DNA from: Desulfobacteraceae bacterium | GTDB lineage: Bacteria > Desulfobacterota > Desulfobacteria > Desulfobacterales > ETH-SRB1 | DNA length: 55,292 nucleotides | NCBI GenBank assembly: GCA_028571455.1 | Contig: JAPVVG010000061.1 | Span: 1 to 55,292, forward strand | Direction of reading: 5' to 3' | Shown here: in pieces, positions 2,937 through 40,296 of the stretch | Layout: each line of letters opens with the position of its first letter | Numbering within the stretch: position 1 is the first letter of the stretch | The notes under the pieces: model-generated | Told to the model about the DNA's origin: nothing | The model's database searches: none | What the model saw: only the letters and a program-made list of their open reading frames with translations | Made by a program: the position numbers and the translations under genes

Positions 2937-3422
2937 TCAGGCCTCCCTTCTGAGCAGAATATTGGCGCCAGACTTAGTAATATGGCGCTTATCATTGTAC
3001 ATGATCTTTGATTCGGTATGGCCTGTTATAATCGATATCATCTCATCCAGAAAATTGAGCGAGTCGTCAATAAAGAGCTTGTTTTCCTTTCTCAAGGCCT
3101 GAGCCTCGCCATTTAATCGTATAAGTACTTGGTATAGTTCCCGAAACTTAGGCCTATTCCCCTTTGGGATCATGCCCAGTATCTGGTTGGGATCAAAGGT
3201 CTCCTGGTCTGCCGATGGGTTAGCGGTAGAAACGATTTCCTGCCTGATAGAGTCTATCTTTGAGCATATTTCCTCTTTTTCTTCAGATATCCGCCATAGT
3301 TTATCTAAATCTATATTGATCAAAAAATCTCTTTCCTCCATAAAAGAATGAAGCAGGTCATTGTAAAGCAAGATCTTATCGCAAATAAGCTTTTCAATGG
3401 ATTGAACAATGGTATCTTCCAT
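2937..3422 (-). CDS. flgN: FlgN-like flagellar export chaperone (putative)
   Basis: 161 aa and helical. It sits 2 nt upstream of flgK and immediately downstream of a sigma-28 promoter. The call rests on position and size and has no strong motif. Confidence 0.5.
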   Translation of the reverse strand: MEDTIVQSIEKLICDKILLYNDLLHSFMEERDFLINIDLDKLWRISEEKEEICSKIDSIRQEIVSTANPSADQETFDPNQILGMIPKGNRPKFRELYQVLIRLNGEAQALRKENKLFIDDSLNFLDEMISIITGHTESKIMYNDKRHITKSGANILLRREA

Positions 3423-8783: not shown

Positions 8784-9066
8784 GGATTGATGATTTATGA
8801 TTGTTGATTGATGATTGATGTCCCGCCTGGGCGGGATTCGCCCTGCCCGCCACCTGCCCGCAATGCCCTCGATGCGGGCGGGCTTGCTCAGACGAGGCAG
8901 GCGGGTCTATCTTTTCAATCGCCAATCATCAATCCTTGCTCTGACCTCCGACCCCGATTTTCGCGGCTGAAAGCCGCTCCCACTCAACCACTCGACCACT
9001 CGACCACTCGACCACTGGGCCTCTGACATCTGACATCTGACTTCTGACTTCTGACCTCTGACATCT
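8784..9066. repeat. composite repeat block: TGATTGA heptamers / GC hairpins / inverted CAATCAT / 9-mers CCACTCGAC x3 / CTGACYT heptamers
   Basis: This was read directly from the sequence. The outer ggattgatgatt...caatcatcaatcc arms are inverted repeats around stacked cccgcc/ggcggg hairpins. Confidence 0.9.
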
Positions 9067-9349
9067 GGGGTTCAGGGTTACCTTTCATTGAATTAAGAGA
9101 ATATACAAAGGCCAACAATTCTGCGACAATAACATAAAGGGCAGGGGGGATCTCTTCATTCAAATCAAGCTGTGATAAAACCTCTATCAGATCCGGGTCA
9201 TTGTGGATGTGTATATTATGCTCTCTTGCGATCTCGATGATCTTCTCGGCCACTTTTCCCTTTCCCATGGCTGTGACCCTGGGCGCTTTGTCTAATTCAG
9301 GCTGATACTTTAAGGCAACAGCCCTGTTTTGTCCTTTTCTTCTTTTCAT
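8984..9349 (-). CDS. stand-alone FlhB C-terminal-domain protein (YlqH/FlhB-C-like)
   Basis: 121 aa. ALKYQPELDKAPRVTAMGKGKVAEKIIEIAREHNIHIHNDPDLIEVL...IPPALYVIVAELLAFVY matches the FlhB cytoplasmic subdomain after NPTH. The last ~30 aa are translated from intergenic repeats. Confidence 0.8.
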   Translation of the reverse strand: MKRRKGQNRAVALKYQPELDKAPRVTAMGKGKVAEKIIEIAREHNIHIHNDPDLIEVLSQLDLNEEIPPALYVIVAELLAFVYSLNSMKGNPEPQMSEVRSQKSDVRCQRPSGRVVEWSSG

Positions 9350-10432
9350 TTAAGCGACAAGGCAAATGGCGCTGCCTTCCTCCTGAATAATTTCTTTGAC
9401 AAGCGATTTTCTGACTATCCCCGGTTCCTTAAGATGGCACTCTATATGGTGGATTGTGAAGCCCCTGTCTTTCAGGTTGCTGATAAAAGATAAAATATTA
9501 TTCTCAATAAGTAATTTTGTCTTCTCTTTAGCAAGCAGGAACCTTCCGTCAATCTCTTCTCCTTTAATAGTAAGATCTGCCCTGACAGGGCCAAGATTAG
9601 ACAACTCTAATAAAAAGGTTATACTGAAGAATTTTTTGTCGATTCTTTTCTTTCCACATTCATCCTTTTCTTCTTGAGGCAGATGTATCAACAACTGACC
9701 CACGGTAAAAAGCCCATTGGAAAATTGAATCGGAATAGGCAGAAAAATTTTCCTCTCATGCTCCAGTCCGAAGTGATTAAGAAGCTGGATGTTTTCTATG
9801 GTAGATACAAATCTTTTCAAAAGAACGCTTTTCCCTTCATTAAGGTTAAGGAATCTTGAAACCAGGCCTTTCAGGTCTCCTCCCATGAGTTTATTGAGAT
9901 TATTCCCGGCGATTGTCTTATTTATGAATGCCTTTCGAAGTTTTGCCTCCCAACTCAAACCCGATTTTTCAATCAGCGTCTTTAGCAGGTCCGGGGCGGA
10001 TTTTAAAGATAATCGAAGCAACAGGTCGTCCATCAATTCCCTGAACCGGGATATTTCTGCTTGCGGCAGGCCATGGTGATCTATGTTTTCATGTATAGAT
10101 TTCCACAGATTTTCCTTCATTGCAGACAGTATAATAGAAATATTAATTGCATCTGAATCTGCGAATCTAATTCCAAGGAGTTTGAGGGTTGGGGTGGGTC
10201 TAATCTCTTCAACTTTCAGGGATAGAACACTCCCTTCCCTCAGCAGGACATGGGTTCTTGCCGTCACCTCTTTTCCCTTGATGAGAAGCAGAACATTGCC
10301 TGAAGAAAAAGATTTTAATACCTTTCCCTCAACAACCTCATTTGTGCGCAATTTAGGTGGGGATGCAACATCCTGATCAGGCTTGAGAAATATTTTTGAT
10401 ACTGAATACGGGGTACTATTAACATGTATCAA
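9350..10432 (-). CDS. hypothetical protein, translationally coupled to the FlhB-C-like gene
   Basis: 360 aa. Its stop codon TAA abuts the downstream ATG. The N-terminal segment VVEGKVLKSFSSGNVLLLIKGKEVTARTHVLLREGSVLSLKV resembles segments seen in FliK-like proteins. The function is unknown. Confidence 0.7.
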   Translation of the reverse strand: MIHVNSTPYSVSKIFLKPDQDVASPPKLRTNEVVEGKVLKSFSSGNVLLLIKGKEVTARTHVLLREGSVLSLKVEEIRPTPTLKLLGIRFADSDAINISIILSAMKENLWKSIHENIDHHGLPQAEISRFRELMDDLLLRLSLKSAPDLLKTLIEKSGLSWEAKLRKAFINKTIAGNNLNKLMGGDLKGLVSRFLNLNEGKSVLLKRFVSTIENIQLLNHFGLEHERKIFLPIPIQFSNGLFTVGQLLIHLPQEEKDECGKKRIDKKFFSITFLLELSNLGPVRADLTIKGEEIDGRFLLAKEKTKLLIENNILSFISNLKDRGFTIHHIECHLKEPGIVRKSLVKEIIQEEGSAICLVA

Positions 10433-11249: not shown

Positions 11250-11855
11250 TCAAACAGCTAAAAAATCGGTTATATAGGCCTCATTGATCCTCCCCATAGA
11301 TAAAGCCCCATTAACTGCTCTGATAATACACTTCTTAAGTTTCTCCAGTGAAGGGACATCTTTGAGTCCATTTATCTCTTCTGTCAACATATCATAGATG
11401 ATTCCTCTAAGCCGATTTTTCTCCTGTATCATTTGTTCCCTTAATTCTTTATCCGGCAACTTAAAGGCAATAGTTAAAGAGATATAGGTAAATTTTTTAC
11501 TCTGTTTAAAGGGAATAACAAATGAGTGAAATACGAGTAATTGATCTTTCGGGATCGCAAATCTCTCAGGTCCTTCCTTTTGATTAGATGTTACAAGAGA
11601 CATTTCTCCTTTCATATAAAGATATCCTGTCCCTGTTAAAAGGCAGAGCCCAATTGCAATACATAACAATAACCTTTTCTTTTCTCTACAGAGTCCTGCT
11701 AAAATAAGTAACCACAACCTTTTTCTCTCTCTATTCTTCACCTCAAGGTTGTTAGAATCTTCCTCTTCCGGAATTGATGGTACATCTAATTCATCTAATT
11801 CAAGTCCGCTAAATTGGTTATTATTTTCTTCGCCATTTGAAGAAATCATGATCAA
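11250..11855 (-). CDS. FliL-like basal-body-associated protein (second paralog)
   Basis: 201 aa. It has a long acidic N-terminus, one TM helix, and a FliL-like C-terminus (..FTYISLTIAFKLPDKELREQMIQEKNRLRGIIYDML...AYITDFLAV). Confidence 0.6.
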   Translation of the reverse strand: MIMISSNGEENNNQFSGLELDELDVPSIPEEEDSNNLEVKNRERKRLWLLILAGLCREKKRLLLCIAIGLCLLTGTGYLYMKGEMSLVTSNQKEGPERFAIPKDQLLVFHSFVIPFKQSKKFTYISLTIAFKLPDKELREQMIQEKNRLRGIIYDMLTEEINGLKDVPSLEKLKKCIIRAVNGALSMGRINEAYITDFLAV

Positions 11856-11875: not shown

Positions 11876-13021
11876 TTATTTTCTTTTCATCAAATAATCC
11901 AGGAGTCGCCACGCGGGTTCTGTAGGCTTTGATTTTACGCACTCTTCGAGCACCACTATCGCTTCTTCAATTCTGCCAATTTCAAAATAGACTCTTCCTA
12001 AATTATAAAGGATAACATGATTTCCTGGGGCGAGGCTCAAACACTTCAGGTATTGTTGAATGGCTGCCTCGTGCTGCCCAATTTTTCTCAATTCTACAGC
12101 ATACTTGTTAAAGGTCTCAACTGTTTGTGGAATTGGATCGATAGTTTGATCTAAAAAATTCCCTGCCTTTTTTATGTCACCGGAATCGAGATAAACTTTT
12201 CCCATGTCCACGAGATTGAGATCGGTCGGATTTGTATCCGCTATAGCATCAAATATTTCAGTGGCTTCATTTGCTAACCCTAACTTCGCATACACCTTCC
12301 CCAGTTCTATTTTCCTGCTCCTGTTCAATGGATTCTTTATGCTAGCTTGCTTGTAGTATTGAAGGGCTTCTTCATACTTTTCTTCTTTCATGCAGAGATT
12401 GCCCAGCAAGTTAAGCGCCTTGCTGTCTATTTTTATATCCATTAACCTGTCAATATATTTTCTCGCATTTTCAAAGTCTCCGGAATTAAAGTAGCACTCG
12501 GCTAAAATAGAAAGAACGGTTGGATGTTCCTTTTGCATTAGGAGTTTTTGGGCATAGTCTATCGCCTCATCGTATCTCTCGTAAACTTTAAGGAGGGATA
12601 ACTTTTGTATTTGGTGTTGCATTTCATCTGGATTTAATCGTTTTCTAAAAATGCTTCTTATTGCATCCATTATGCGTTCTTCAGTAAAAGGCTTTTGCTG
12701 ATAACCATCAACGCCCTCTTCGACTGCGTAAATGACCTTGTCTTCGGACATTTCCTCTGTAACCATCAGAACAGGCAGGCTATGGTATTTTGAATCGCTT
12801 CTTATCCTTGTTAACAGTTCAATACCGCTCATATTGGGCATTCCCCAATCAGTAATAACAAAGTCAATATTAGTCTTTTTAAGTATAGCAAGAGCAGCTT
12901 TTCCACTATTACATGTGGAAACTTGTCTATAACCATTACTTCTTAAAATTCCCCTTAATAGCTGTATAATGAGATCCTGGTCATCTACAATTAAGAAAGT
13001 GTAATTTTGTCTATCTAACAT
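11876..13021 (-). CDS. response regulator receiver + TPR repeat protein
   Basis: 381 aa. The REC domain is canonical (LIVDDQ..., DFVITDWGMPNMSG, KPF) and is followed by multiple TPR-like repeats. Confidence 0.85.
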   Translation of the reverse strand: MLDRQNYTFLIVDDQDLIIQLLRGILRSNGYRQVSTCNSGKAALAILKKTNIDFVITDWGMPNMSGIELLTRIRSDSKYHSLPVLMVTEEMSEDKVIYAVEEGVDGYQQKPFTEERIMDAIRSIFRKRLNPDEMQHQIQKLSLLKVYERYDEAIDYAQKLLMQKEHPTVLSILAECYFNSGDFENARKYIDRLMDIKIDSKALNLLGNLCMKEEKYEEALQYYKQASIKNPLNRSRKIELGKVYAKLGLANEATEIFDAIADTNPTDLNLVDMGKVYLDSGDIKKAGNFLDQTIDPIPQTVETFNKYAVELRKIGQHEAAIQQYLKCLSLAPGNHVILYNLGRVYFEIGRIEEAIVVLEECVKSKPTEPAWRLLDYLMKRK

Positions 13022-18020: not shown

Positions 18021-19100
18021 CTAACCTCTGAACCCTGAACCTTCTGTCTTGAGCTTATAAATGTAAGCCAAAACCTCAGCAACAGACTGGTATAAAAAGG
18101 CAGGTATTTCCTGACCTATCTCAACTATTGAATACAGGCTCCTGGCGAGTTCCTTGTTCTCTACAATCGGGATGTCATGCTTTTCTGCCAAATCTTTGAT
18201 CCTTTTGGCTATTTCTCCCGCTCCCTTAGCAAGTAAATTTGGCGCATTCATAACAGACTCATCATACATTAAAGCCACTGCAAGATGGGTAGGATTGGTA
18301 ATGACCACATCTGCCTTTGGAACGTCTTGCATCATCCTTTTTCTGGCCATCTGCAATTGAATGCTTCTTATCCTTGATTTTATCAGCGGATCACCTTCCG
18401 TCCTTTTTAACTCATCCTTCACATCTTTTTTGCTCATCCTGAGCCTCTTTTCAAAATCCCACTTCTGGAAGGCATAATCGATGGCTACAATAAAAATCAT
18501 CGCCAGAGTGCATCTGACAAAAAGCTTAAAGATGGTGACAAGGATATAGGCAATAATTGAATTCAGCTCCATATCGCCTAAAAGAAAAAGATTTTTCATT
18601 TCACCCTTTATTGTGAGATATCCTACTCCTCCGACAATAGCCAACTTCAGCAAAGACTTGAGTAGTTCCATAAATGACCGCTTTGAAAAGAGCCTTCCAA
18701 AACCCTTAATCGGATCTAATTTTGACATCTTGGGTTTGATCGATTCACCGGACAGCATAAAGCCAACCTGCATGATATTGGATAAAATCGCTGCAACAAC
18801 AATGGCTATCAGGAGGGGACATAATGTTAAGATAAACAAGAAGACCATCTCCCGGGCAAAAGCCATAAAATCAGGAACATTCAGATCATTCAAAATAGGA
18901 AGAGAAAATGCCAATCCCATGATAGTTTTGATATGAGTATACATATAGGATCCAAAGATGGTCAGGGCAATCAAACTGGCCAGGAGAACAGCCACTGAAG
19001 GCAACTCCCTGCTTTTTGCCACTTCCCCCTTTTTTCTGGCCTCTTGCCTCTTCTTTGGCGTTGCTTTTTCAGTCTTATCTTCAAAACTCTTTTCAGCCAT
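18021..19100 (-). CDS. flhB: flagellar export switch protein FlhB
   Basis: 359 aa. It has an N-terminal KTEKATPKKRQEARKKG segment, four TM helices, and the NPTH autocleavage site (VVITNPTHLAVAL). Confidence 0.97.
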   Translation of the reverse strand: MAEKSFEDKTEKATPKKRQEARKKGEVAKSRELPSVAVLLASLIALTIFGSYMYTHIKTIMGLAFSLPILNDLNVPDFMAFAREMVFLFILTLCPLLIAIVVAAILSNIMQVGFMLSGESIKPKMSKLDPIKGFGRLFSKRSFMELLKSLLKLAIVGGVGYLTIKGEMKNLFLLGDMELNSIIAYILVTIFKLFVRCTLAMIFIVAIDYAFQKWDFEKRLRMSKKDVKDELKRTEGDPLIKSRIRSIQLQMARKRMMQDVPKADVVITNPTHLAVALMYDESVMNAPNLLAKGAGEIAKRIKDLAEKHDIPIVENKELARSLYSIVEIGQEIPAFLYQSVAEVLAYIYKLKTEGSGFRG

Positions 19101-20310: not shown

Positions 20311-20485
20311 ATTCCTCACTCCTCACTCCTCACTCCTTACTCCTTACTCCCTATTCTCTATTCCCTATTCCCTATCCTCTTTGCTGGTTCTCCGACCCCA
20401 GACCTCTGACTTCTGACTTCCGACTTCCGACCTCCGACTTCCGACTTCTGACTCCAGACCTCTGACCTCTGACCTCTGACCTCTA
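20311..20485. repeat. heptamer arrays CCTCACT/CCTTACT, CCCTATT, CTGACYT/CCGACTT between fliQ and fliP
   Basis: Three successive heptamer modules are joined by the conserved junction cctctttgctggttctccgac. Confidence 0.95.
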
Positions 20486-20493
20486 CTTATCAA

Positions 20494-22909: not shown

Positions 22910-23416
22910 CTATTGCACCACAAATTCCGTAAAATAGATCCTGCGAACGACTGCCTCGCTCAAAATCTGATTGACCCTCAACAGGAGCTCTTGTTTTAAT
23001 TCAAGCTTTCCTTCCATTGTGCTAATCTCTTTGAATGACTTGCTTGAAAGGAGAATGAGAATAGTATCCCTTAATTGTGGTTTATACTTTTTCAACATCA
23101 TGCCTTGTTCTTGATTGCCGATTTCAAGAATTATCCCGGCCTTCAGGTATCTTTTTCCTGATCCGGATTTATCCATAAGATTGACAATAAATGTATCAAG
23201 AGGGTATGTGATGAGCGCCTCTTCTTTGTTTTTCTGGGGCTGGGTTTCGGAAATCTGCGCCTCGTTTTTGCCTTCCTTTATAAACATGTCCCATCCCAGA
23301 TAACCCCCGACTCCAAGAACGATTACCAAAACCACTAAGATTATTAATTTAAGAAAAGACCGCTTAGACTTTTTCTCTTCAGGCTTTTTCTCTTCAGGCT
23401 TTTTCTCTTTAGGCAT
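22910..23416 (-). CDS. fliL: basal-body-associated protein FliL
   Basis: 168 aa. It has a KPEEKK repeat N-terminus, a TM helix, and a FliL C-terminus (..YFTEFVVQ). Confidence 0.88.
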   Translation of the reverse strand: MPKEKKPEEKKPEEKKSKRSFLKLIILVVLVIVLGVGGYLGWDMFIKEGKNEAQISETQPQKNKEEALITYPLDTFIVNLMDKSGSGKRYLKAGIILEIGNQEQGMMLKKYKPQLRDTILILLSSKSFKEISTMEGKLELKQELLLRVNQILSEAVVRRIYFTEFVVQ

Positions 23417-23426: not shown

Positions 23427-24164
23427 TTATAAATATTTAAAGATTATCTCGACTCTTCTGTTAATGGCTCTTTTTTCCGGAGTATCGTTTGGATGTAGAG
23501 GCATGGACGCGCCATACCCCCCGACAAAAAAGCGTGATGGTGACAGCCCTTTTTCCTCTAAAAAGTATTCAAGAACAGAAAGCCCCCTGTATAATGAAAG
23601 CTCCTGGTTTGATTTATATAACCTGCTTTTAATCGGGATGTTGTCTGTATGACCCATAATGAGAATTTCATTGGGGCATGATTCCATGGCCTCGGCAATT
23701 GAGTCGAGAAACTGGAATACCTCCTTTTTGATAGTCGTCTTTCCGGAATCAAAAAGTATATCCCCATGAAAGGATATTGTAATACCCCTTGCATCATCTT
23801 TTATACTGATTAGTTCATTAAAATTCTTTAGCGTCCCCTTTATATTTTTATCTGATTTAAGCGAAGGCATGAGAAGACTCTTAATAAGCTCCTGATCAAT
23901 CACCAATAAGCCTGCGGAAGTTTGATATTTTTTGATAAGGGTTGCAAAATCAGTGATTTCACTTGAACCAGCAAATTCAAGTACGCCGGAAGGCGTACTA
24001 AAATGCATAAATGTTTCTTTCAGTTTCTTTATGTCTATCGAAGACATGGTAAGAAGCATTACAAAAAAGGTGAGGAGAAGCATAACAAGGTCTGAAAATG
24101 TTACCAGCCACGCGTTGGCATCCACCGTTGTATCAGATGAAAGGTTTTTTTTTCTCTTGACCAT
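23427..24164 (-). CDS. motB: stator protein MotB (canonical)
   Basis: 245 aa. The TM segment WLVTFSDLVMLLLTFFVML carries the conserved Asp. The OmpA-like C-terminus has GHTDN, NQELSLYRG and NRRVEI. Confidence 0.9.
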   Translation of the reverse strand: MVKRKKNLSSDTTVDANAWLVTFSDLVMLLLTFFVMLLTMSSIDIKKLKETFMHFSTPSGVLEFAGSSEITDFATLIKKYQTSAGLLVIDQELIKSLLMPSLKSDKNIKGTLKNFNELISIKDDARGITISFHGDILFDSGKTTIKKEVFQFLDSIAEAMESCPNEILIMGHTDNIPIKSRLYKSNQELSLYRGLSVLEYFLEEKGLSPSRFFVGGYGASMPLHPNDTPEKRAINRRVEIIFKYL

Positions 24165-24167
24165 TAT

Positions 24168-24950
24168 TCAAAAAATCCTGAAGTCAAACTTCATATATGT
24201 AAAGACACCCGATGATTTCTTTCTGTAAATCCTTTTAATATAGGCTGGCGCACTAAAATTCAAAATAATATCCACCCTTCTGTTTTGAGCCCTTAATTGT
24301 CTTGTATCATTGGACGCAATTGATCTATGGCTGCCGCATCCATATGCCTCAAGTCTATCAGGGTGAATTCCGCCTGCCGACTTGAAATACTTAAAGACCT
24401 GCATCGCCATCAGCGCCGATAGCTCAAAGTTGGACTTATATCCCTTTTCTTCCGCCGGCCTGTTATCTGTATGCCCGGCTATCTCTACGGAATAATCCCC
24501 ATTTTTTATAAAATCGCATAGTTCACTTAACACAAGGTATGAAGAGGTTTTGAGCTTTAATTTATTCTCATCATTCTCATCAAAGAGGAATTTCTCATTT
24601 ATGGTGATTATTTCTTTGTCCTCATGTGATTTTAAACTAATCTTGTCCTTTTCCTTTACATCTATGTTTATGATATTTAACAGTTTATTATGGTCTAATC
24701 CTTTCTCTATCATTGGGGTGGAAGGTAGAGGGGTGAGTTTTCCTGTGTTCGATGCTGAAGATCCGCTGGTAAAACTGCCAAAAGCGCCTAAGAGTGAACC
24801 TAAGCTCAGGCGAATTTTTTTTTCGTCAAATACCGCGAGGGAATTGAGCAAAATAAAAAAGGTCAGGAGTATGAGAAAAAGAGAAACAGTCATAATTGCT
24901 CCTATGCCTGCTTTGAGTTCATCATCGATATTTTTTTTCTTTTTAGCCAT
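24168..24950 (-). CDS. MotB-like OmpA-domain protein lacking the channel Asp
   Basis: 260 aa. The TM segment GAIMTVSLFLILLTFFILL aligns to the MotB plug/TM region but has no acidic residue. The OmpA-like C-terminus has GHTDNRP, NFELSALMAM and NRRVDI. Confidence 0.8.
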   Translation of the reverse strand: MAKKKKNIDDELKAGIGAIMTVSLFLILLTFFILLNSLAVFDEKKIRLSLGSLLGAFGSFTSGSSASNTGKLTPLPSTPMIEKGLDHNKLLNIINIDVKEKDKISLKSHEDKEIITINEKFLFDENDENKLKLKTSSYLVLSELCDFIKNGDYSVEIAGHTDNRPAEEKGYKSNFELSALMAMQVFKYFKSAGGIHPDRLEAYGCGSHRSIASNDTRQLRAQNRRVDIILNFSAPAYIKRIYRKKSSGVFTYMKFDFRIF

Positions 24951-25708
24951 TAAGAAGACTTCCTCTGACTGGGGGGCACAAAGGCCAGAAGTTTCTGTTC
25001 AAGGATCCTGGGATTATCGCCATTGGAAAGGGATATTACTCCCTTAATAGTCAGCTCCTTGGTCAACACCTCCTCCTTGCTCCGTGTCCTGAGCTTTCCC
25101 GCTATGGGCATGCACACTATATTGGCGATGACAGAACCATAAAAAGTTGTAAGCAAGGCCACAGCCATGGCCGGTCCTATTGTACTCGGGTCATCCATGT
25201 TCTGGAGCATCTGCACCAATCCTATAAGAGTTCCGATCATACCAAGGGCAGGGGCGTATGTTCCCATGGTGCTAAATATCTCTGCCCCTAACTGGTGCCT
25301 GGTTCTGATAAAATCAAGTTCTGTTTCCAGTAAATTAGCGATCTCCTGGGGTTCCAGTCCATCGATAGAAAGCTGAACTCCCTTTTTTAAGAATTCATCT
25401 CTCACATTCTTAATATCACTCTCTAAAGACAAAATGCCTTCTTTGCGGGACTTGCGGGCCAAATCTAAGAATCTTTTGATGAGTTTATCTGTGGATATGT
25501 TTTTTGTTAAAAGCGCTTTTTTAACAACACTTAAAACCCCAAATACATCCTTTAAGGGATAATTAATCATAGTCGCCCCGAGTGTGCCGCCAACAACTAT
25601 CATCAATGCAGGAATATTTACAAAAAGCTGAATTCCAGCGCCTATGGAAATAGCTAAAAATACAAGGCCAAATGCCGATATAACGCCTAATAAAGTCGCA
25701 ATGTCCAT
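24950..25708 (-). CDS. motA: stator protein MotA
   Basis: 252 aa in the MotA/TolQ/ExbB family (..YAPALGMIGTLIGLVQML..., AVALLTTFYGSVIAN). Confidence 0.93.
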   Translation of the reverse strand: MDIATLLGVISAFGLVFLAISIGAGIQLFVNIPALMIVVGGTLGATMINYPLKDVFGVLSVVKKALLTKNISTDKLIKRFLDLARKSRKEGILSLESDIKNVRDEFLKKGVQLSIDGLEPQEIANLLETELDFIRTRHQLGAEIFSTMGTYAPALGMIGTLIGLVQMLQNMDDPSTIGPAMAVALLTTFYGSVIANIVCMPIAGKLRTRSKEEVLTKELTIKGVISLSNGDNPRILEQKLLAFVPPSQRKSS

Positions 25709-25721: not shown

Positions 25722-25895
25722 GGTTCAGGGTTGCTCGTTACTCGTTACTCGTTGCTCGTCATTTGTTATTGATTATTAATTCAGGGTTCAAGGTTCCGAT
25801 TTCCGGTTTTCGACTTCCGATTTCCGACTTCTGACCTCTGACTTCCGACTTCTGACCTCTGCCTGCCCGCCGTCCTTCTGGCGGGACTTCCGGGT
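25722..25895. repeat. heptamer arrays GGTTCAG, CTCGTTR, CYGAYTT plus GC hairpin in the motA leader
   Basis: This was read directly from the sequence. The block ends with cctgcccgccgtccttctggcgggac (25862-25887). Confidence 0.95.
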
Positions 25896-25934
25896 TTATC
25901 TAAACGCCTTAGATGATATTTTTAATGAATATAT

Positions 25935-25950
25935 AGCAATCTTTGTGCCA
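25935..25950 (-). promoter_or_regulatory. sigma-54 promoter upstream of motA operon
   Basis: The minus strand reads TGGCACAAAGATTGCT, a perfect -24/-12 match. It lies about 227 nt upstream of the motA ATG and just downstream of the flgE terminator. Confidence 0.75.
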
Positions 25951-26025
25951 TTTATCTTAACACGGGGTTATTTAACTTTGAGGAGGTTATATATTCTTAG
26001 GAGTGAAAAAAGTGAGGGAGATATG

Positions 26026-26118
26026 GCAGGCGGGTTTTGGTCATTGTAATTTACCTGCCCGCCATCGGCTTCGCCTACAGGCGAGGCGGGCGGGTTTGTT
26101 ATTTGTTATTTGTTATTT
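26026..26118. repeat. GC hairpin element plus TGTTATT heptamers
   Basis: cctgcccgccatcggcttcgcctacaggcgaggcgggcggg is followed by three tgttatt units. Confidence 0.85.
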
Positions 26119-26170
26119 CAAGAAAGGAAATTCCTATACTATTAAATTATTGAAGTCTTATGTGTGAAGC

Positions 26171-26216
26171 CACGTCAAGAAACAGGGCAGGTGTCAGGAT
26201 CTTGACACCTGCCTTG
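26171..26216 (-). terminator. intrinsic terminator after flgE
   Basis: A 14-bp stem (core GGCAGGTGTCA/TGACACCTGCC) with a 6-nt loop starts 7 nt after the flgE stop. On the minus strand it is followed by UUUCUU. Confidence 0.65.
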
Positions 26217-26222: not shown

Positions 26223-27992
26223 CTACCTCTTTAAATTAATAAGCTCTGCCAGCATCTGATCTGTTACCGTAATAATCTTGGCATTGGCCTGGAACCCTCG
26301 TTGTGTGGTTATCATCTTGACGAACTCGGTGGCAAGATCCACGTTAGATTGTTCAAGGGAGTTGGGCGAGATGCTGCCCAGACCGCCGGACCCTGGCTTG
26401 CCGGTAATTGGGTCGCCGCTCAGCCTGGTCTCCCTGAAAAGATTGCCGCCAACCTTGAACAGGGCCTGATTATTCTGAAACTTGGCCAGAGCCACCCTGA
26501 ACAAAGGAATTACCTGTCCGTTGGAGTACTGGCCGGTAAGGGCGCCGTCTGTTCCCACGGTAATCGACTGGAGATCACCGGCCCCATAGCCGTCTGCGGA
26601 CTGAAACGCGGTGGTTGAAGCAGCCGAATATTGAGTGGTGGAAAGCGAGTCGTTCGCCCAGCTCTCGTTCGTCGAGTTATAGGAGGAACCAAAGTCAAGA
26701 TCAATATTCATGCTTGTGTCTGCGCCCCCGAGAAAGTCGGCGGTAGTAAAGAAATATCCATTGGCGCTGAGGTCGCCGGATACGGTTTCGGATTTCGTGA
26801 CCCAGCAGTTGGAGTTTCCAACATCATGGTCGCTGTAGCAGGTTACGGTAAAGTTATCATCCAGAACAAAGTCAGGATCATCAGCGTCGGCTGTCCAAGT
26901 GATTTCTAAGCCATCAGCATCAGTAATAGTCTGAGTACCAGCTGTTGGGGTGAAGGTGTTGTCCCAACTTGTCCCGTCTGTGCACCACTTCATCTCAGCC
27001 ACGATGAATTCGCCCCCAGTCGTCACCTTGAAGTAGTACGTTTTGGTGCTGGTTCCGGTATATGTCCCCCCAGAGGTTGGGTCGGTGCCAGCGTCATCAG
27101 GGTTCCATGTCAAATTCGCAACGGAGCCTATCTTCGTTAGCGTATTTGATGCGTTAAAGGCACTAAAGTCGATGTCGGATATTGCGCCGGATGCCTCGTT
27201 AAAGGTAATAATCCCCCTGCCCAACATCCCCACACCTGTCTGATCGGAATCTATTTCAGACCTGTTGTCCTCATCAGGATTGCAGGTCACGATATATTCA
27301 TACTTTGTACTGGCATCTCCTCTGTCATAATACACGGTGATATCATGGGTGCTTCCCAGGGAATCATACACCTTAAGTGTGGTCTGGTACTCGTAGTTGT
27401 TTTCGCCAATGTAAGCATTGTTTGAATCAGAGCCATCCCATGATGAAGAAAGAGTCGCGGCTTTGCTGGATGCATCGGCATCGAGATTGGTAATCAGTGA
27501 CAGCTTGCCTGTCTTTAGAGGCGATGATGTAAATGACGTGAGCACAACATCGGTAATGGAGCCCTTGTTTTCACCGGTGGTAGAGTCGAGTTCCCATCCG
27601 CGAACAATGTATCCTGCCGGATTGGTAAAATTGCCGTCCTTGTCAAAACGAAATTCACCGGCACGAGTGTAATATTCATTTTCCACATTGCCGGGATCCC
27701 GAACTATAAAAAAACCTTTTCCACCAATGGCCAGATCCGTAGTGCTGTCGGTGGATTCAAACGATCCCTGTGAAAAACTGCTTGTAATATCTGCCAGAGA
27801 TGTGCCGCGCCCTACCTGAGCCGTGCCGGCGGTTGTGGCCACGGTCTGGCTTAAAACGTCCTGGAATGTTACACGGCTTCCCTTAAACCCGACTGTATTG
27901 ACGTTGGCAATATTATCGCCTATCACCGTCATGGCATTGCCAAGCGTGCTCAAGCCGCTGATGCCTGAAAAAAGTGAGCTTGCAAGTCCCAT
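26223..27992 (-). CDS. flgE: flagellar hook protein FlgE (long form with large central insert)
   Basis: 589 aa. N-terminus: MGLASSLFSGISGLSTLGNAMTVIGDNIANVNTVGFK. C-terminus: SNVDLATEFVKMITTQRGFQANAKIITVTDQML. Confidence 0.95.
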   Translation of the reverse strand: MGLASSLFSGISGLSTLGNAMTVIGDNIANVNTVGFKGSRVTFQDVLSQTVATTAGTAQVGRGTSLADITSSFSQGSFESTDSTTDLAIGGKGFFIVRDPGNVENEYYTRAGEFRFDKDGNFTNPAGYIVRGWELDSTTGENKGSITDVVLTSFTSSPLKTGKLSLITNLDADASSKAATLSSSWDGSDSNNAYIGENNYEYQTTLKVYDSLGSTHDITVYYDRGDASTKYEYIVTCNPDEDNRSEIDSDQTGVGMLGRGIITFNEASGAISDIDFSAFNASNTLTKIGSVANLTWNPDDAGTDPTSGGTYTGTSTKTYYFKVTTGGEFIVAEMKWCTDGTSWDNTFTPTAGTQTITDADGLEITWTADADDPDFVLDDNFTVTCYSDHDVGNSNCWVTKSETVSGDLSANGYFFTTADFLGGADTSMNIDLDFGSSYNSTNESWANDSLSTTQYSAASTTAFQSADGYGAGDLQSITVGTDGALTGQYSNGQVIPLFRVALAKFQNNQALFKVGGNLFRETRLSGDPITGKPGSGGLGSISPNSLEQSNVDLATEFVKMITTQRGFQANAKIITVTDQMLAELINLKR

Positions 27993-28038: not shown

Positions 28039-28707
28039 TTATTTGGTTTTCGAAACACTGATATCTACGACCTGCGATATGGGTACAGGAATTTCATCTA
28101 CATAGAGCAACGGGAATATCCCCTCTAAGTTCACCGCGGTTACCTGACCGGTAATCTGTGTTTCCACAGGCAATAACTGCCCATTCTCTGTCATGGCCGT
28201 GATTTCAAAGCCATAGACACCAGCCTCCTGCATATTTCCCGCATTATCGCGGCCATCCCACTCAAAATCATGCCTGCCCGGTTGCAGATGTCCCAGAGAT
28301 ATTTTCCTGACAGGATATCCATTTGTGTCGGTTATCATGACACTACAATCAGCCATATCATCTATCTTAAAGCTGCCCATGGAAGTTTCACCCTGTTTTA
28401 ATGACAGCATTTCACCTTCAGCTACAATCTCTTTTCCGATAAAATCCAGAGACTGAAAACGGGAGTCCTGGTCCTGACCGGATTTTATTAACTCAAGATT
28501 CCGGTCGATACTGAAAAGTTGCTCCAGGCTGCTGAATTGTGCCAGTTGTGCAGTAAATTCTGCGCTTCCAAGCGGGTTTAAAGGATCTTGATGTTTTAGT
28601 TGTGCTACAAGCAGTGTCAAAAAATCCTCCTTTCCCAGTTCCATTTCGGGAGCAGAAGAAGAAGAAGATGTCTCCCCATAAGTTGCTCCAAATCCTTCTA
28701 TAAACAT
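28039..28707 (-). CDS. flgD: hook capping/assembly protein FlgD
   Basis: The motif DFLTLLVAQLKHQDPLNPL is present. I chose the start at MFIEG because GGGAGG lies 8 nt upstream. The ORF-track start at 28764 runs into a palindromic repeat. Confidence 0.9.
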   Translation of the reverse strand: MFIEGFGATYGETSSSSSAPEMELGKEDFLTLLVAQLKHQDPLNPLGSAEFTAQLAQFSSLEQLFSIDRNLELIKSGQDQDSRFQSLDFIGKEIVAEGEMLSLKQGETSMGSFKIDDMADCSVMITDTNGYPVRKISLGHLQPGRHDFEWDGRDNAGNMQEAGVYGFEITAMTENGQLLPVETQITGQVTAVNLEGIFPLLYVDEIPVPISQVVDISVSKTK

Positions 28708-28737
28708 GGTTCTATTCCTCCCTTCCTTATTTAGTGC

Positions 28738-29112
28738 CTGAACGAAAACCCCTCTTTTTGTCATTTCGACCGTAGGGAGAAATCTTTAATGCCTGTATTT
28801 TCAGTATGATAAGATTTCTCGCTTTGCTCGAAATGACAGCTTTGGTTAGTTTTCGTTCAGACACTATTTAGTATACGTTCAGAGTTCTAAGTTCTGGGTT
28901 CCCTTTATTTTGTTAACCTTTACTAACCCTGAACCGTTGAACGATTCTGTCCCCGCCAGACTGACGGCGGGCAAGCTCTGACCTCTGACCTCTGACCTCT
29001 GACCTCTGACCTCTGTCCTCTGACTTCTGACTTCCGACCTCAGACCTCTGACTTCTGACCTCAGACCTCTGCCTGCCCGCCGTCCTTCTGGCGGGACCTC
29101 CGACCTCTGTCC
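28738..29112. repeat. palindromic element (arms 28760-28785 / 28812-28837) plus hairpins and CTGACYT array between fliK and flgD
   Basis: gtcatttcgaccgtagggagaaatct pairs with agatttctcgctttgctcgaaatgac. An outer inverted repeat ctgaacgaaaac/gttttcgttcag is also present. Hairpins lie at 28952-28971 and 29072-29097. Confidence 0.92.
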
Positions 29113-29117: not shown

Positions 29118-30848
29118 CTATACTATTAAATCCAATAAACAATCGCCTCTTGACACAATCCGCTGCATGATTTGTGATTCACTTTCTCCAATGAATGGAA
29201 TCGAATTCATCCCTTTATTCCACCTCTGATTCTGCTTTGTCGACTCCTTTGAGTCAGCCAGGGACTGGCCAAAATTGTAATTGATCTGAACATCTAATTT
29301 GTCGAGCTTTACCCCCTGTTCCACCAGGGCATGTTTGAGCTCATGGACATTGGAAAGCAGGAGTTCCTTTACCGAACTATTCTCAGCTATCATTCCAAGC
29401 TTCAGGATATTGCCTTTAATATTCATCTCGATCTTCACAGTCCCTAAGTCAGGGGGTTTCAATTGAAGTCTTATGACCCTTTCGCCCCTGAGAATAGACC
29501 TGGAAATCTGTTTTCCTACCTGATTAATCAAATAAGCCGGCAATAAATTCCTCGCAGACCCTGGCTGCTGTTTGACGTTATTGATGATATCTGAGGAGGT
29601 GGAACTTCCAATATTGCAGGGGACATCCATTTTACCTGTTTCTGATTTGATTATATGCCCCTCTTCTTTACCCCCCATCTTTAATGTGAGACCGGTATCG
29701 CGAGTCCGGGTTATTGAGCTTATCTCATTCTCGCTCAGATGAGACGGGCGGGCATTGGCGCCATTCTTTTTCAGAAGAGATGGTATATTCTCCTTTTCCG
29801 CTGCTTTATTCTTTCCTGTTTTCTTATTGGAATGTAAAGCGGTTAACTCCGGTCTGGAATCAGAATGTAAAGCGGTTAACTCCGGTCTGGAATCAGAATG
29901 TAAAGCGGTTAACCCCGGTCTGGAATCAGAATGTAAAGCGGTTAACTCCGGTCTGGAAAAGGATAATAGAGAAGATACGAGGCTCTCTTTTTCTGCGCTC
30001 ACAGCCACCTTTTCTACTATCTGGTCAATGGAAGCTTTTACATCAGCCGGCAACAGACCTCCTTTACCCGGGCCTCCTGCCATTTGTTCCAGCGCTGTTA
30101 TCAGGTCTTTGATTGAAACCCGGCCATCCATTTTCTTAGTTGGTATCTGAATTCCTATCCCTTCAAGTTTTTTTAAGACCTTGCAGACCACATCTCGATC
30201 AATAGTCACTTGATTTCTTTCAGGATCTCTTGGATTTATCTGGTTGCTGATCTCTTTTAATTTTATGACAAGTCTTTTCAGATCCAATTTCCCGCCTTCA
30301 AGTTTTGCATAGCTGAAAACATGATCCAGTTCTTTTGGCGACAGACCAAAATCTCTCAATAATGATTCAAGATGGGGAATAACCGAAATATCCAGGGCAA
30401 CAGGTTGATATGACTTTTTCTCAGGAGGTTCAAGCTCGGTTAGTTTATGGAAAAACTCGGACAGATTAATCTCTCCACTAAGTTTATTCTCGGCCAGTCC
30501 CTGTAAGAACTTTTCCACGCTTTCCTGGGAAAAACCACAATGGTAAAGAAATTTTTTTAACACAAAAAGATCCTTTTTGTTTAGAGAGATTTTATTTAAT
30601 GGTTTCCCCCTAACTAAAAGTCCTTTTCTGAGAGATTCAATATAGAATTTATATCCTTTTTTAAGGGCCGGTCCGGTTTGAGCAGGCCTGGTAGGATGAT
30701 GAAAGGGCTTTTTTTGAGCCGAATTCAGTAATTTCTGGATAGAGGCGAAAAAATCCCCTGTCCCTTTTACCGATTTTAAGAGACTCCCGTTATTGCCTCC
30801 CTGGCAATTAATGGGTGATGAAATAATTTTTAAGATTATTGGGTTCAT
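29118..30848 (-). CDS. fliK: hook-length control protein FliK
   Basis: 576 aa. The C-terminal FliK domain reads IRLQLKPPDLGTVKIEMNIKGNILKLGMIAENSSVKELL. The gene lies upstream of flgD-flgE and contains 3.8 copies of a 33-nt in-frame repeat. Confidence 0.85.
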   Translation of the reverse strand: MNPIILKIISSPINCQGGNNGSLLKSVKGTGDFFASIQKLLNSAQKKPFHHPTRPAQTGPALKKGYKFYIESLRKGLLVRGKPLNKISLNKKDLFVLKKFLYHCGFSQESVEKFLQGLAENKLSGEINLSEFFHKLTELEPPEKKSYQPVALDISVIPHLESLLRDFGLSPKELDHVFSYAKLEGGKLDLKRLVIKLKEISNQINPRDPERNQVTIDRDVVCKVLKKLEGIGIQIPTKKMDGRVSIKDLITALEQMAGGPGKGGLLPADVKASIDQIVEKVAVSAEKESLVSSLLSFSRPELTALHSDSRPGLTALHSDSRPELTALHSDSRPELTALHSNKKTGKNKAAEKENIPSLLKKNGANARPSHLSENEISSITRTRDTGLTLKMGGKEEGHIIKSETGKMDVPCNIGSSTSSDIINNVKQQPGSARNLLPAYLINQVGKQISRSILRGERVIRLQLKPPDLGTVKIEMNIKGNILKLGMIAENSSVKELLLSNVHELKHALVEQGVKLDKLDVQINYNFGQSLADSKESTKQNQRWNKGMNSIPFIGESESQIMQRIVSRGDCLLDLIV

Positions 30849-31320: not shown

Positions 31321-31510
31321 CCTCCGACCTCTCTGGATTGTTGATTTATGATTGATGGAATCGCTCCTGTCTGCGTGCGGACACGCACAGGCAGGTTGCT
31401 CTATATCTTTTCAATCGACAATCATCAATCGACAATCATCAATCCTTGCTCCGACTTCTGACCTCCGACCTCTGTCCTCCGACCTCTGACTTCTGACTTC
31501 TGACTTCTGA
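31321..31510. repeat. composite block: GATTGAT-type arms, central hairpin, CAATCATCAATCGA repeats, CYGACYT array
   Basis: The architecture matches 8784-9066 (ggattgttgatttatgattgatgg...caatcatcaatccttgctccgac). Confidence 0.9.
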
Positions 31511-32530: not shown

Positions 32531-33867
32531 TGGACAATCCGATCCTCAAACAGATCCTTCAACCGGTCAACACTTTCTTTAAAGCTCACCTTCTGGTAAA
32601 TATCCTGGCGTAGAAATGAATTAATTTTCCCGATAATCTTCTTGGCAACATCTATCTCCGGATCGCTGCCATCCACATAAGCGCCTATTCTAATCAAATC
32701 CTCCGCCCCCCTGTATGTAGAAAAAACTTCAATCAACTTTTTAGCATTATTATAATGCTCGGAGTCGATAATATCTTTCATTACCCTGCTAATACTTGTC
32801 AACACATCCACTGCAGGATAGTGTCCTTTATGGGAAAGGGATCGGGACAGCACTATATGCCCGTCTGCGACAGAGCGAACACAGTCTGTTATGGGTTCAT
32901 TCATATCATCGCCTTCGACCAAAACATTATATATTCCTGTAATGCTCCCTGTTTTTTCGACTGTTCCAGCCCTTTCAAGGAGTTTTGGTATCTCGCTGAA
33001 AACACTCGGGGTATAACCTTTTGCTGAAGGCGGCTCCCCTGCAGCCAATCCTACCTCCCTTAACGACATGGCAAATCTGGTAATAGAATCCATGACCAGG
33101 ATAACATCCAGGCCTTTATCCCTGAAGTATTCTGCCAGGGTGGTGGCTACATAAGCCCCTCTTATCCTTACCAGGGGAGGGGAATCAGACGTAGCCACTA
33201 CAACAACCGATTTCTTAAGCCCTTCTTCTCCAAGGGTGTTTTCGATGAATTCTCTCACCTCCCTGCCTCGCTCCCCGATCAAGGCCATTACAATGACATC
33301 CGCGGATGTATTCCTGGCTATCATACCGATCAGAACGCTCTTCCCTACACCGGATCCTGACATTATCGCTATCCTTTGACCCTTTCCAATAGTCAGCAGC
33401 GCATTGATAGAACATATCCCGACATCTATGACATCATGTATAATCTCCCGTTTCAAAGGATTAAGAACATCTGCATAGATCGGATATTCTTTTTCTCCCC
33501 TTATTATACCTTTCCCATCAATTGGGCGGCCAAGGCCATCTACGACTCTGCCAAGGTATGCCTCTCCGACCTGAACACCAGGCTTTTTACTTATTGCAAG
33601 GATTTGGCTTCCAGGCTTTATTCCTCTCATTTCACCAAACGGCATGATAATGATACTTTTTTCGTTAAATCCTACCACTTCAGCCTGGATATTGAGGCCT
33701 TCTGAATTTTTTATTGCACAAAGGCTCCCGACACTTAGTCTCGGTCCATTCGCTTGGGCAACAATTCCTGCAACCTTTACTATCTTCCCCGCCAATGTAA
33801 CAGCCTGGCATGAGTTTGCGGCGTTGAAATATTTATCCCATTTGATTTTGTAATTGTCATTAGTCAT
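32527..33867 (-). CDS. fliI: flagellar export ATPase FliI
   Basis: 446 aa with Walker A GSGVGKS and an F1-ATPase-like core. Confidence 0.97.
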   Translation of the reverse strand: MTNDNYKIKWDKYFNAANSCQAVTLAGKIVKVAGIVAQANGPRLSVGSLCAIKNSEGLNIQAEVVGFNEKSIIIMPFGEMRGIKPGSQILAISKKPGVQVGEAYLGRVVDGLGRPIDGKGIIRGEKEYPIYADVLNPLKREIIHDVIDVGICSINALLTIGKGQRIAIMSGSGVGKSVLIGMIARNTSADVIVMALIGERGREVREFIENTLGEEGLKKSVVVVATSDSPPLVRIRGAYVATTLAEYFRDKGLDVILVMDSITRFAMSLREVGLAAGEPPSAKGYTPSVFSEIPKLLERAGTVEKTGSITGIYNVLVEGDDMNEPITDCVRSVADGHIVLSRSLSHKGHYPAVDVLTSISRVMKDIIDSEHYNNAKKLIEVFSTYRGAEDLIRIGAYVDGSDPEIDVAKKIIGKINSFLRQDIYQKVSFKESVDRLKDLFEDRIVQ

Positions 33868-33957
33868 TGGTCATTTATCATTGGTCATTGGTCATTGGTC
33901 ATTGGTCATTGGTCATTTATCATTGGTCATCTGACCTCTGACCTCTGTCATTTGTCA
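33857..33957. repeat. (TCATTGG)n heptamer array spanning the fliH stop to the fliI start
   Basis: There are about 14 heptamer units, including variants gtcatta, atcattg, gacctct and gtcattt. Both the fliI ATG and the fliH TGA lie inside units. Confidence 0.95.
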
Positions 33958-40027: not shown

Positions 40028-40296
40028 GGTTCAAGTCGCTTCGCTCCAGGAAAGAGAAAAGAGGTAAGAGAAAATAGGAAAGGCGCTCTATCCTCTATCC
40101 TCTTTACTCTATCCTCTTTACTCTATCCTCTTTACTCTATCCTCTTTACTCTTTGCTGGTTCTCCGACCTCTGACTTCTGACCTCTGACTTCTGACTTCT
40201 GACCTCTGACCTCTGACTTCTGACTTCTGACCTCCGACCTCTGACTTCTGACCTCTGACATCTGACTTCTGACCTCCGACCTCTGACTTCTGAGCC
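40028..40296. repeat. composite block: ggttcaagtcgcttcgctcc element, 14-mer CTATCCTCTTTACT x4, CTGACYT array (runs into TPR gene 3' end)
   Basis: This was read directly from the sequence. The junction ctttgctggttctccgac is conserved with 20381 and 42921 (reverse complement). Confidence 0.95.

Follow-up and report, generated by a model that had tools for sequence, protein, structure and literature searches.

The stator locus of a Desulfobacteraceae bacterium (contig JAPVVG010000061.1) encodes two MotB paralogs directly behind its only motA, and the motA-proximal one, designated motB' here, lacks the transmembrane (TM) Asp. This invariant Asp carries the coupling ion in the stator B subunit (D32 in Escherichia coli, D24 in PomB). 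Gene order and phylogeny identify motB' as a predicted dedicated stator B-subunit paralogue that derives from one ancient motB duplication. The family is old, spans several phyla, and is apparently undescribed; we found no description of an Asp-less MotB paralogue in a literature search that covered few subscription journals, so that this absence is no proof. Our current hypothesis, to which we give a nearly even chance, is that MotB' contributes to a one-Asp stator of the composition MotA5:MotB:MotB', in which the motB' product would itself be unable to carry ions.

Results

The window, meaning the whole 55,292-nucleotide stretch of DNA that was analysed, carries on its minus strand motA (24950-25708), motB' (24168-24950), motB (23427-24164), and fliL (22910-23416), in that order. 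Both open reading frames that the initial annotation had read as MotB paralogs, the motA-proximal one without the channel Asp, are present, and Pfam matches and alignments agree with that reading. The motA stop codon shares one base with the motB' start codon (TAATG), and 3 nt separate the motB' stop from the motB start. The product of motA is a PomA/MotP-like stator A subunit of 252 aa (Pfam MotA_ExbB, 116 bits) whose top NCBIfam matches, PomA (284.8 bits) and MotP (264.7 bits), both fall below their equivalog cut-offs; it scores 229.8 bits against Clostridium sporogenes MotA and 199.5 bits against Vibrio PomA. A search for a second MotA_ExbB open reading frame across the window returned none, and a single motA is thus available to both B paralogues here, as in the surveyed loci. 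The distal paralog, motB, encodes a canonical stator B subunit of 245 aa (Pfam MotB_plug 54.2 bits, OmpA 65.9 bits; 136.6 bits against C. sporogenes MotB, 6ysf) with Asp25 (codon 24090-24092) inside WLVTFSDLVMLLLTFF and the Arg in NQELSLYRG (LSLYRG), as had been proposed. The gene that always directly follows motB in related loci, fliL, encodes a stator-associated protein (Pfam FliL, 92.9 bits). Two further proteins encoded in the window, an SH3+TPR protein of 883 aa and another FliL-like protein, are candidate scaffolds. Contigs of close relatives that span motA, motB', motB, and fliL occur in one metatranscriptome-labelled run; these are assembler products that may include DNA and are thus no proof of expression.

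MotB' (260 aa) has a predicted TM helix at residues 15-39, GIGAIMTVSLFLILLTFFILLNSLA (24834-24908, minus strand), which contains a MotB-type LLTFF core, a conserved Asn36, and no Asp or Glu; the first acidic residues, D42 and E43, lie past the membrane. Alignments by phmmer with MotB (8ucs, 6ysf) and PomB (8bri, 8zyz) are ungapped over the TM helix and place Ser23 (codon TCT, 24882-24884, minus strand) opposite the stator Asp. The initial annotation was therefore right that this helix has no acidic residue, but the gap that it placed in IMTVS-LFL disappears, with a Ser in the Asp column. Across 152 MotB' orthologues this column holds Ser (99), Ala (39), Thr (7), Asn (4), Gly (2), or Cys (1), and Asp in none. 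An Asp or Glu hidden by misalignment, which was sought as a competing alignment, is rejected, as the TM core of all 152 sequences is free of either residue. In two deep-branching members a Glu lies at the cytoplasmic edge, five residues before the Asp column. In an alignment of 22 homologues with identities as low as 51%, F25 to F32 and the LLTFF core are invariant, and Ser/Cys at position 23 and Met at position 181 are nearly invariant or invariant. The substitutions at 23 and 181 are thus neither chance nor a feature of sequencing. AlphaFold2 (AF2) models, which were made for monomers and so confirm the MotB' domains while being silent on partners or complexes, place the helix at residues 15-39 (first model) or 16-57 (second model), with a pLDDT of 81-89 in the TM segment.

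Where MotB has its plug helix, MotB' carries the motif GSLLGAFG (GxxxGxxG; residues 51-58, 24777-24800, minus strand), a signature of the family in which G51, S52, F57, and G58 are invariant in the MotB' alignments. The consensus after the TM helix is LGSLxGSFG in the MotB' family versus KLKEAFxHF in MotB. The window protein matches Pfam MotB_plug at 16.6 bits, under the 24-bit cut-off, and relatives from other phyla reach 35.5, 34.7, 28.7, and 26.1 bits.

The periplasmic part of MotB' is an OmpA-like domain (residues 104-231, 24258-24641, minus strand; Pfam OmpA 49.2 bits, cut-off 27.2; AF2 pLDDT about 76-97). Its best Foldseek matches are Helicobacter pylori MotB-C, Bacillus subtilis MotS-C, and PomB-C, with E values from 7.5e-12 to 3e-9. 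In such domains, the Asp of (G)HTD and the Arg of LSxxRA bind the diaminopimelate of peptidoglycan (PG). The window protein retains GHTD (D162) and has Met181 (codon ATG, 24408-24410, minus strand; invariant in A1) in place of the Arg. The loss of this Arg, which had been noted from the DNA before, is specific to the subclade of the window, and most of the wider MotB' family keeps the residue. Because the Arg is gone in the window lineage, wall anchoring by MotB' in the usual mode is unlikely, and the earlier suggestion of a peptidoglycan anchor for a periplasmic disk is a poor fit there; any anchoring by MotB' would need another route, such as the C-terminal beta-hairpin extension. This extension (residues 232-260, SAPAYIKRIYRKKSSGVFTYMKFDFRIF; 24171-24257, minus strand) is absent from MotB, conserved in A1 and A4, and predicted to form a short helix and an aromatic beta-hairpin (helix 236-242, strands 249-252 and 255-258; AF2 with 98 sequences, pLDDT 57-68). 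At least 25 aa follow the NxRV motif in 104 of 132 MotB' proteins versus 5 of 97 MotB proteins, and most Desulfobacterota MotB' members carry the extension.

The initial annotation treated the paralogs as a local pair, but the family is ancient and reaches into several phyla. At E ≤ 1e-5, MotB' has 725 homologues, which databases name either 'OmpA family protein' or 'chemotaxis protein MotB'. The order motA, Asp-less motB', Asp-bearing motB, fliL is constant in about 150 species-level genomes, and two surveys of 80 species-level loci extend it to fliM and fliN in 74 and about 70 loci, respectively. Carriers belong to the Desulfobacterales, Desulfatiglandales, Desulfarculia, Nitrospirota, Nitrospinia, Myxococcota, Sumerlaeota, and Bdellovibrionales, and include the cultured Desulfocarbo indianensis, Dethiosulfatarculus sandiegensis, and Desulfatibacillum alkenivorans. 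With residues classed in a MAFFT alignment that uses the window MotB as the reference, the proximal gene is non-Asp and the distal gene Asp in every pair. Median spacing across loci is 5 nt between motA and motB' and 2 nt between motB' and motB. A neighbor-joining tree built from capped distances places 133 of 133 MotB' proteins in one clade (F of at least 0.98 in 96 of 100 bootstraps), and MotB' thus arose from one old motB duplication. Identity among orthologues is 0.78 for MotB' versus 0.79 for MotB in the TM helix, 0.61 versus 0.50 in the post-TM segment, and 0.48 versus 0.50 in the OmpA domain. Purifying selection on MotB' equals that on MotB, the TM helix included. A pseudogene or chance open reading frame is ruled out by this conservation, and a generic, stator-unrelated OmpA protein by synteny; the initial annotation had entertained an OmpA-family protein that is not co-conserved with motA, and the motA-motB'-motB arrangement recurs in about 150 loci.

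The two paralogues also differ in which of them keeps the PG-binding motifs. Among 130 complete pairs, these motifs are intact in both proteins in 55, degenerate in MotB' and intact in MotB in 53, degenerate in MotB and intact in MotB' in 17, and partly degenerate in both in 5. The Myxococcota-type loci L115, L116, and L157 encode an Asp-bearing MotB with a MotB_plug match and no detectable OmpA domain, together with an Asp-less MotB' whose OmpA domain has GHTD/NWxLS/RA/NRR. Loss of the Asp in one paralogue and of OmpA motifs in the other is complementary and suggests that both act in one complex. The five loci in which both OmpA domains are partly degenerate weaken this argument, since anchoring can evidently vanish or shift.

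Discussion

Because the losses of Asp and of OmpA motifs are complementary across lineages, we infer a MotB/MotB' heterodimer in one MotA ring as the leading reading, one that was absent from the initial annotation. The TM helix of MotB' would enter the MotA pentamer beside that of MotB and give MotA5:MotB1:MotB'1. Ion coupling would come from MotB, and MotB', neutral at this position with its Ser or Ala, would behave as a partner helix that never carries charge. At the periplasmic mouth, the invariant GSLxGxFG motif would take the place of one of the plug helices, and the periplasmic dimer would consist of both OmpA-like domains. Cell-wall anchoring would be split between MotB and MotB', either of which could bear it. 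In the window lineage, MotB retains the PG-binding Arg as well as the Asp, and MotB', with Met181 and the C-terminal beta-hairpin, would presumably touch another periplasmic partner through its extension. In favor of such a mixed stator, the LLTFF helix of MotB' is kept as strictly as that of MotB and is thus constrained like a genuine MotB TM helix. The constant gene order, the short distances between the genes, the single origin of MotB', and the lone motA open to both paralogues also speak for it. Three points of background count against it. Substitutions of MotB D32 in E. coli were reportedly non-functional and dominant (Zhou et al., 1998), which would mean that mixed Asp/non-Asp dimers fail in the E. 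coli motor. The alternating two-Asp rotary model has no obvious room for a one-Asp unit, and members of the MotB family are normally homodimers.

Of the roles put forward initially, a scaffold, a plug, or a regulator that competes for MotA, each is possible and has less support than the heterodimer. In one version, MotB' would sit outside the MotA ring as a periplasmic accessory anchored in the inner membrane, like MotY/MotX, PflB, or FliL, and its OmpA-like domain and C-terminal hairpin would connect MotB or FliL with the wall or with a periplasmic ring. The ion-carrying residue is missing from all members, most Desulfobacterota members have a family-specific predicted beta-hairpin, the window protein is under the MotB_plug cut-off, and the window holds further candidate scaffolds in its SH3+TPR protein and second FliL-like protein, all of which agree with an accessory. 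A plain membrane anchor, however, is not expected to hold LLTFF near-invariant across phyla as MotB does, and the accessories MotY, PflA/B, and FlgT have no MotB-type TM helix. MotB' matches NCBIfam MotY at 32 bits, far from the cut-off of 400, through its OmpA part, and has a predicted TM helix in addition; in the window lineage, the lost Arg also speaks against the usual wall anchoring. We consider a role outside the ring unlikely.

Distinct MotA5:MotB'2 units are a second version of these roles. The initial statement that an Asp-less MotB cannot conduct ions by the established mechanism would hold for MotB' as a homodimer, and such rotor-proximal, non-conducting units might act as a placeholder, idler, brake, or load-dependent regulator that competes with MotA5:MotB2 for MotA and for sites at the motor. 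Homodimerisation is usual for MotB-family proteins, MotB' has kept a strongly conserved TM helix of the MotB type, motB' is predicted from gene spacing and order to be co-transcribed with the sole motA, and the window-lineage MotB alone has the Asp, plug, and Arg, which is all that an active stator needs. Nevertheless, the Myxococcota-type Asp-bearing MotB without a recognisable OmpA domain would leave the sole conducting unit unanchored, and in every genome the two genes are strictly paired 1:1 and closely spaced, which suits an obligate partner more than a competitor. We rate separate units as slightly less likely still than a role outside the ring. Finally, that motB' is a decaying or redundant motB duplicate, or a generic OmpA-family gene in the operon by chance, is barely credible: two residues held essential in MotB are lost and the database names are generic, but the frame is intact, the 725 homologues represent one multi-phylum clade, conservation is at the level of MotB, the gene position is invariant, and the motifs GSLxGxFG, Asn36, and the C-terminal hairpin are family-specific.

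To our knowledge, all current models of the stator and of the 5:2 motors ExbBD, TolQR, ZorAB, and AglRQS have two identical B subunits with alternating Asp residues. It is a serious possibility, albeit one that falls short of even chances, that many bacteria (Desulfobacterota, Nitrospirota, Nitrospinota, Myxococcota, Bdellovibrionota, and others) drive their flagella with an asymmetric one-Asp MotA5:MotB:MotB' stator. If so, a 5:2 motor is able to rotate although one of its two axle helices is always neutral and just the other is active, and these bacteria provide a natural test system for the alternating two-Asp mechanism of MotAB, PomAB, ExbBD, TolQR, and ZorAB. Should MotB' pair with MotB, the resulting natural one-Asp stator would directly test the need for both Asp residues; should it form separate units or a scaffold, it would be a new and widespread stator accessory. 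Annotation pipelines label MotB' as 'MotB' or 'OmpA family protein', and a study that equates the B subunit with whichever gene follows motA (as PMC12505986 does) would, in our extension beyond that paper, select the Asp-less paralogue in these phyla.

MotB, PomB, and MotS are among the closest known systems. MotB' shares with them a short basic N terminus, one TM helix with LLTFF, a post-membrane helix, a linker, and an OmpA-like domain, its gene directly follows motA, and its periplasmic domain is structurally closest to MotB-C, MotS-C, and PomB-C. Unlike them, the MotB' family replaces the TM Asp by Ser, Ala, Thr, Asn, Gly, or Cys and has GSLxGxFG in place of the plug, a conserved Asn36 toward the periplasmic helix end, a C-terminal beta-hairpin, and, in the subclade of the window, Met for the PG-binding Arg. 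TonB and TolA offer a parallel of another kind: their single TM helix lacks the Asp and acts jointly with an Asp-bearing B subunit (in ExbBD or TolQR) and a MotA-like A subunit. They differ from MotB' in being unrelated in sequence, in lacking an OmpA-like domain, and in delivering energy to the outer membrane rather than forming a stator. MotY/MotX of the T-ring, PflA/PflB, and FliL are accessories encoded with flagellar genes that stabilise or position stators, but they have no MotB-type TM helix and none is encoded between motA and motB. MotY, which has an OmpA-like domain in common with MotB', is a secreted protein that pairs this domain with a MotY N-terminal domain and has no TM helix. 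With respect to gene organization, the Aquifex aeolicus operon has one motA followed by motB1 and motB2, whose products have divergent periplasmic regions and each, as a chimera, drive rotation with MotA in E. coli (PMC4525482); both are thus active B subunits. By contrast, the proximal MotB' is without the Asp in every locus and forms a separate ancient clade. In the Myxococcus gliding motor AglR-AglQ-AglS and in ExbB-ExbD1-ExbD2 loci, one A subunit is accompanied by two B-type subunits, a mid-membrane Asp is predicted in both AglQ and AglS, and heterodimers within a 5:2 assembly are an open question (PMC9389320). The window locus resembles these systems in that one MotA/TolQ-like A gene accompanies two different B-type genes, and it differs in that AglQ and AglS both have the predicted Asp, resemble TolR and not OmpA in their periplasmic domains, and are non-flagellar.

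Gene context of the two B-subunit genes

The entire 55-kb window is taken up by a single minus-strand cluster of flagellar and chemotaxis genes. The DNA matches metagenomes of cold seep and marine sediment, and its closest named genomes are Desulfobacterales MAGs. The central block of this cluster consists of flgD (28039-28764), flgE (26223-27992), motA (24950-25708), motB' (24168-24950), motB (23427-24164), and fliL (22910-23416), all on the minus strand, followed by fliM, fliN, fliO, fliP, fliQ, and fliR. The stop codon of motA shares one base with the start codon of motB' (TAATG), 3 nt separate the motB' stop from the motB start, and no second motA was found within the window.

Several other features of the cluster were recorded. 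A second, divergent FliL-like gene (11250-11855, minus strand; Pfam FliL 28.6 bits) is distant from the motA-motB'-motB-fliL block and adjoins a gene for a response-regulator-TPR protein (11876-13021). Besides a full-length flhB (18021-19100), the cluster has a stand-alone ORF (8984-9349) that matches FlhB over its C-terminal portion alone (profile positions 262-335), and two FliK-like (Flg_hook) genes are present (9350-10432 and 29118-30848), the larger of which contains an in-CDS 33-nt repeat (3.9 copies, 97% match, 29830-29958); all four are on the minus strand. An 883-aa protein (40146-42797, minus strand) whose N-terminal SH3_3 domain is accompanied by numerous TPR repeats is, by analogy to the TPR proteins PflA and PflB, a possible candidate for a periplasmic motor scaffold. 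Minus-strand genes at the chemotaxis end code for a PilZ-domain protein (53891-54550), an HDOD protein (48663-49553), and CheZ-like (45750-46538) and CheX-like (47801-48277) phosphatases. Heptanucleotide tandem repeats, similar to the heptamer STRR repeats of cyanobacteria, occupy nearly all intergenic gaps, including the gap upstream of motA (20401-20488, 25794-25861, 28976-29071, 31449-31510, 40162-40304, 46631-46690, 52613-52736, and 53899-54004, with further sites at 33856-33930, 40086-40152, and 45469-45533). The repeat units on the plus strand are CTCTGAC, GACTTCT, GACCTCT, and other 7-mers. Metagenome contig depth rises from ∼150 to 500-3100 across 25725-26192, and the repeats are therefore multi-copy.

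The motA-proximal paralog lacks the stator Asp

The distal gene encodes an ordinary MotB. Its product matches the Pfam models MotB_plug (54.2 bits) and OmpA (65.9 bits), scores 136.6 bits against Clostridium sporogenes MotB, and carries Asp25 within FSDLVMLLLTFF and an Arg within NQELSLYRG. The proximal product, MotB', matches OmpA at 49.2 bits and MotB_plug at 16.6 bits, below the 24-bit cut-off. In phmmer alignments, the TM helix of MotB' is ungapped relative to full-length MotB (8ucs, 6ysf) and PomB (8bri, 8zyz), with Ser23 facing the stator Asp. The same register was obtained by BLASTP of MotB' against MotB (28% identity, E = 3e-23). No Asp or Glu is present in residues 15-39 of MotB', and Met181 replaces the Arg of LSxxRA; GHTD and NRRV are retained. 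The initial annotation had claimed an Asp-less proximal paralog that had also lost the Arg, and these residues confirm it. The gap in its alignment of the helix (IMTVS-LFL) is unnecessary, and its interpretation of MotB' overall is supported only in part.

Among 22 MotB' homologs (down to 51% identity), F25-L26-I27-L28-L29-T30-F31-F32, G51, S52, F57, G58, M181, and A182 are invariant and S23 is nearly so, Cys being the sole alternative. AF2 predicts a TM helix (15-39) followed by a helix extending past the membrane, a linker without order, and an OmpA-like domain modeled with confidence (104-231); given a 98-sequence alignment, it also places a short helix and a β-hairpin (E249-252/E255-258, pLDDT 57-68) in the C-terminal extension. 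The highest-ranked Foldseek matches were H. pylori MotB-C, B. subtilis MotS-C, and PomB-C.

Origin, constraint, and distribution of MotB'

Across the 152 MotB' sequences compared, Ser (99), Ala (39), Thr (7), Asn (4), Gly (2), or Cys (1) occupies the Asp column. Because Ala and Gly are tolerated, the side chain at this position plays no part in ion binding. An NJ tree of 133 MotB', 120 adjacent MotB, and 26 other MotB placed 133/133 MotB' in one clade with a single intruder, and the clade was at least 98% pure and complete in 96/100 bootstraps. The duplication was thus single and old, and the tree establishes MotB', at the level of phylogeny, as a MotB-type Asp-less paralog of single origin. 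In a deep-branching variant from Candidatus Desulfacyla and a relative (related loci L073, 1655-2410, and L076, 2027-2794), Gly occupies the Asp column and a Glu precedes it by five residues, at the cytoplasmic edge of the helix (WEIVYTGFILIMLSFF). This variant alone among MotB' falls outside the clade in an N-terminal-only tree.

Conservation among orthologs was 0.78 (TM helix), 0.61 (post-TM segment), and 0.48 (OmpA-like domain) for MotB' versus 0.79, 0.50, and 0.50 for MotB, and a broad sequence set gave the same pattern. Judged from these alignments, MotB' is conserved to the same degree as MotB, segment by segment, and its TM helix is demonstrably under strong constraint. The family is marked by GSLxGxFG at the plug-helix position of MotB, an Asn 13 residues after the Asp column, and the C-terminal extension. 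An extension of at least 25 aa after NxRV is found in 104/132 MotB' versus 5/97 MotB, and that of MotB' terminates in an aromatic hairpin motif (e.g., FTYKKFDFRIF, FTFKDFFFKVF, FKGFTFDLL).

A word-index search returned 725 MotB' homologs at E ≤ 1e-5. Scanning one genome per species yielded 80 loci, 74 of which are ordered flgD, flgE, motA, motB', motB, fliL, fliM, fliN, fliP; in every one of them, the Asp is absent from the proximal B gene and present in the distal one. Spacing is tight across loci, with medians of 5 nt (motA to motB') and 2 nt (motB' to motB). As far as gene order goes, these loci demonstrate an obligate genomic pairing of motB' with motA and motB.

Searching 1.84 billion cluster representatives with a profile yielded 271 matches at E ≤ 1e-30. 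Among the best 150 are many proteins whose Asp column is occupied by Ser or Ala and whose helix reads LLAFFILLN; these retain a normal Arg, and the C-terminal tail is often missing. When genomes were scanned with alignments of these profile-search groups, motA, Asp-less motB', Asp-bearing motB, fliL, fliM, and fliN were found in this order in many lineages beyond the clade of the window, namely Nitrospirota, Nitrospinia, Desulfarculia, Myxococcota (Polyangia, Bradymonadales), Sumerlaeota, Bdellovibrionales, and more Desulfobacterales. Cultured carriers include Desulfocarbo indianensis, Dethiosulfatarculus sandiegensis, and Desulfatibacillum alkenivorans DSM 16219. At one Nitrospinia locus (L106, 3193-4672), the genes that follow motA and Asp-less motB' are unrelated ones instead of motB and fliL; this genome may have a split pairing or a canonical motB elsewhere.

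Complementary loss of wall-anchoring motifs and a proposed stator

Peptidoglycan-binding residues (the GHTD Asp and the LSxxRA Arg) were scored in 130 complete MotB'/MotB pairs. Both paralogs are intact in 55 pairs, only MotB' is degenerate in 53 (including the Arg-to-Met subclade of the window), only MotB is degenerate in 17, and both are partly degenerate in 5. Scored on these motifs, anchor loss proves to be complementary and lineage-specific. In eight Myxococcota/Polyangia-type loci (L115, L116, L117, L128, L129, L135, L154, and L157), the distal Asp-bearing MotB has no recognizable OmpA motifs (no GHTD, no NRR). For L115, L116, and L157, Pfam detects MotB_plug and no OmpA domain in this protein; the Asp-less MotB' has OmpA with MotB_plug above the cut-off in L115 and L157 and just under it in L116 (22.6 bits). 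Some lineages thus have the ion-carrying Asp on one paralog and the wall anchor on the other, a division of labor which suggests that MotB' and MotB function within one assembly.

Our working model, held tentatively, is a central MotB'/MotB heterodimer inside the MotA pentamer (5:1:1), in which the helix supplied by MotB' would be neutral; MotB' would also provide a modified plug and one of the two halves of the periplasmic dimer. The MotB' of the window lineage, having lost the Arg, would use its C-terminal hairpin for another periplasmic contact. Substitutions of D32 in E. coli MotB are dominant-negative, which, with the alternating two-Asp model, is the main argument against such a heterodimer. 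MotB' could instead be a scaffold outside the MotA ring; this is unlikely, as its TM helix is conserved at the level of MotB. Separate, non-conducting MotA5:MotB'2 units are quite doubtful, given the lineages in which the Asp-bearing MotB has no anchor. Decay or irrelevance of motB' is refuted by its conservation, and we consider it ruled out, with a negligible probability.

Comparison with known systems

The gene motB' is a real feature, ancient and widespread, and apparently uncharacterized. No description of an Asp-less MotB paralog was found in the literature searched, no NCBIfam model matched MotB' at its cut-off, and databases name it "OmpA family protein" or "chemotaxis protein MotB". 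The most likely reading, a natural heteromeric stator with one Asp, would greatly interest the motor field if true; the cultured carriers make it testable. Canonical MotB is closest in working to MotB', but MotB' fails the family-defining test of the TM Asp and, in the window subclade, that of the peptidoglycan-binding Arg, and is therefore classed as a variant rather than a MotB ortholog. The motA-motB1-motB2 operon of Aquifex has a similar arrangement; however, its B subunits have TM regions that are 97% identical and are both active as chimeras (PMC4525482). AglQ and AglS are both predicted to retain the Asp (PMC9389320), whereas in the MotB'/MotB pair only MotB carries it.
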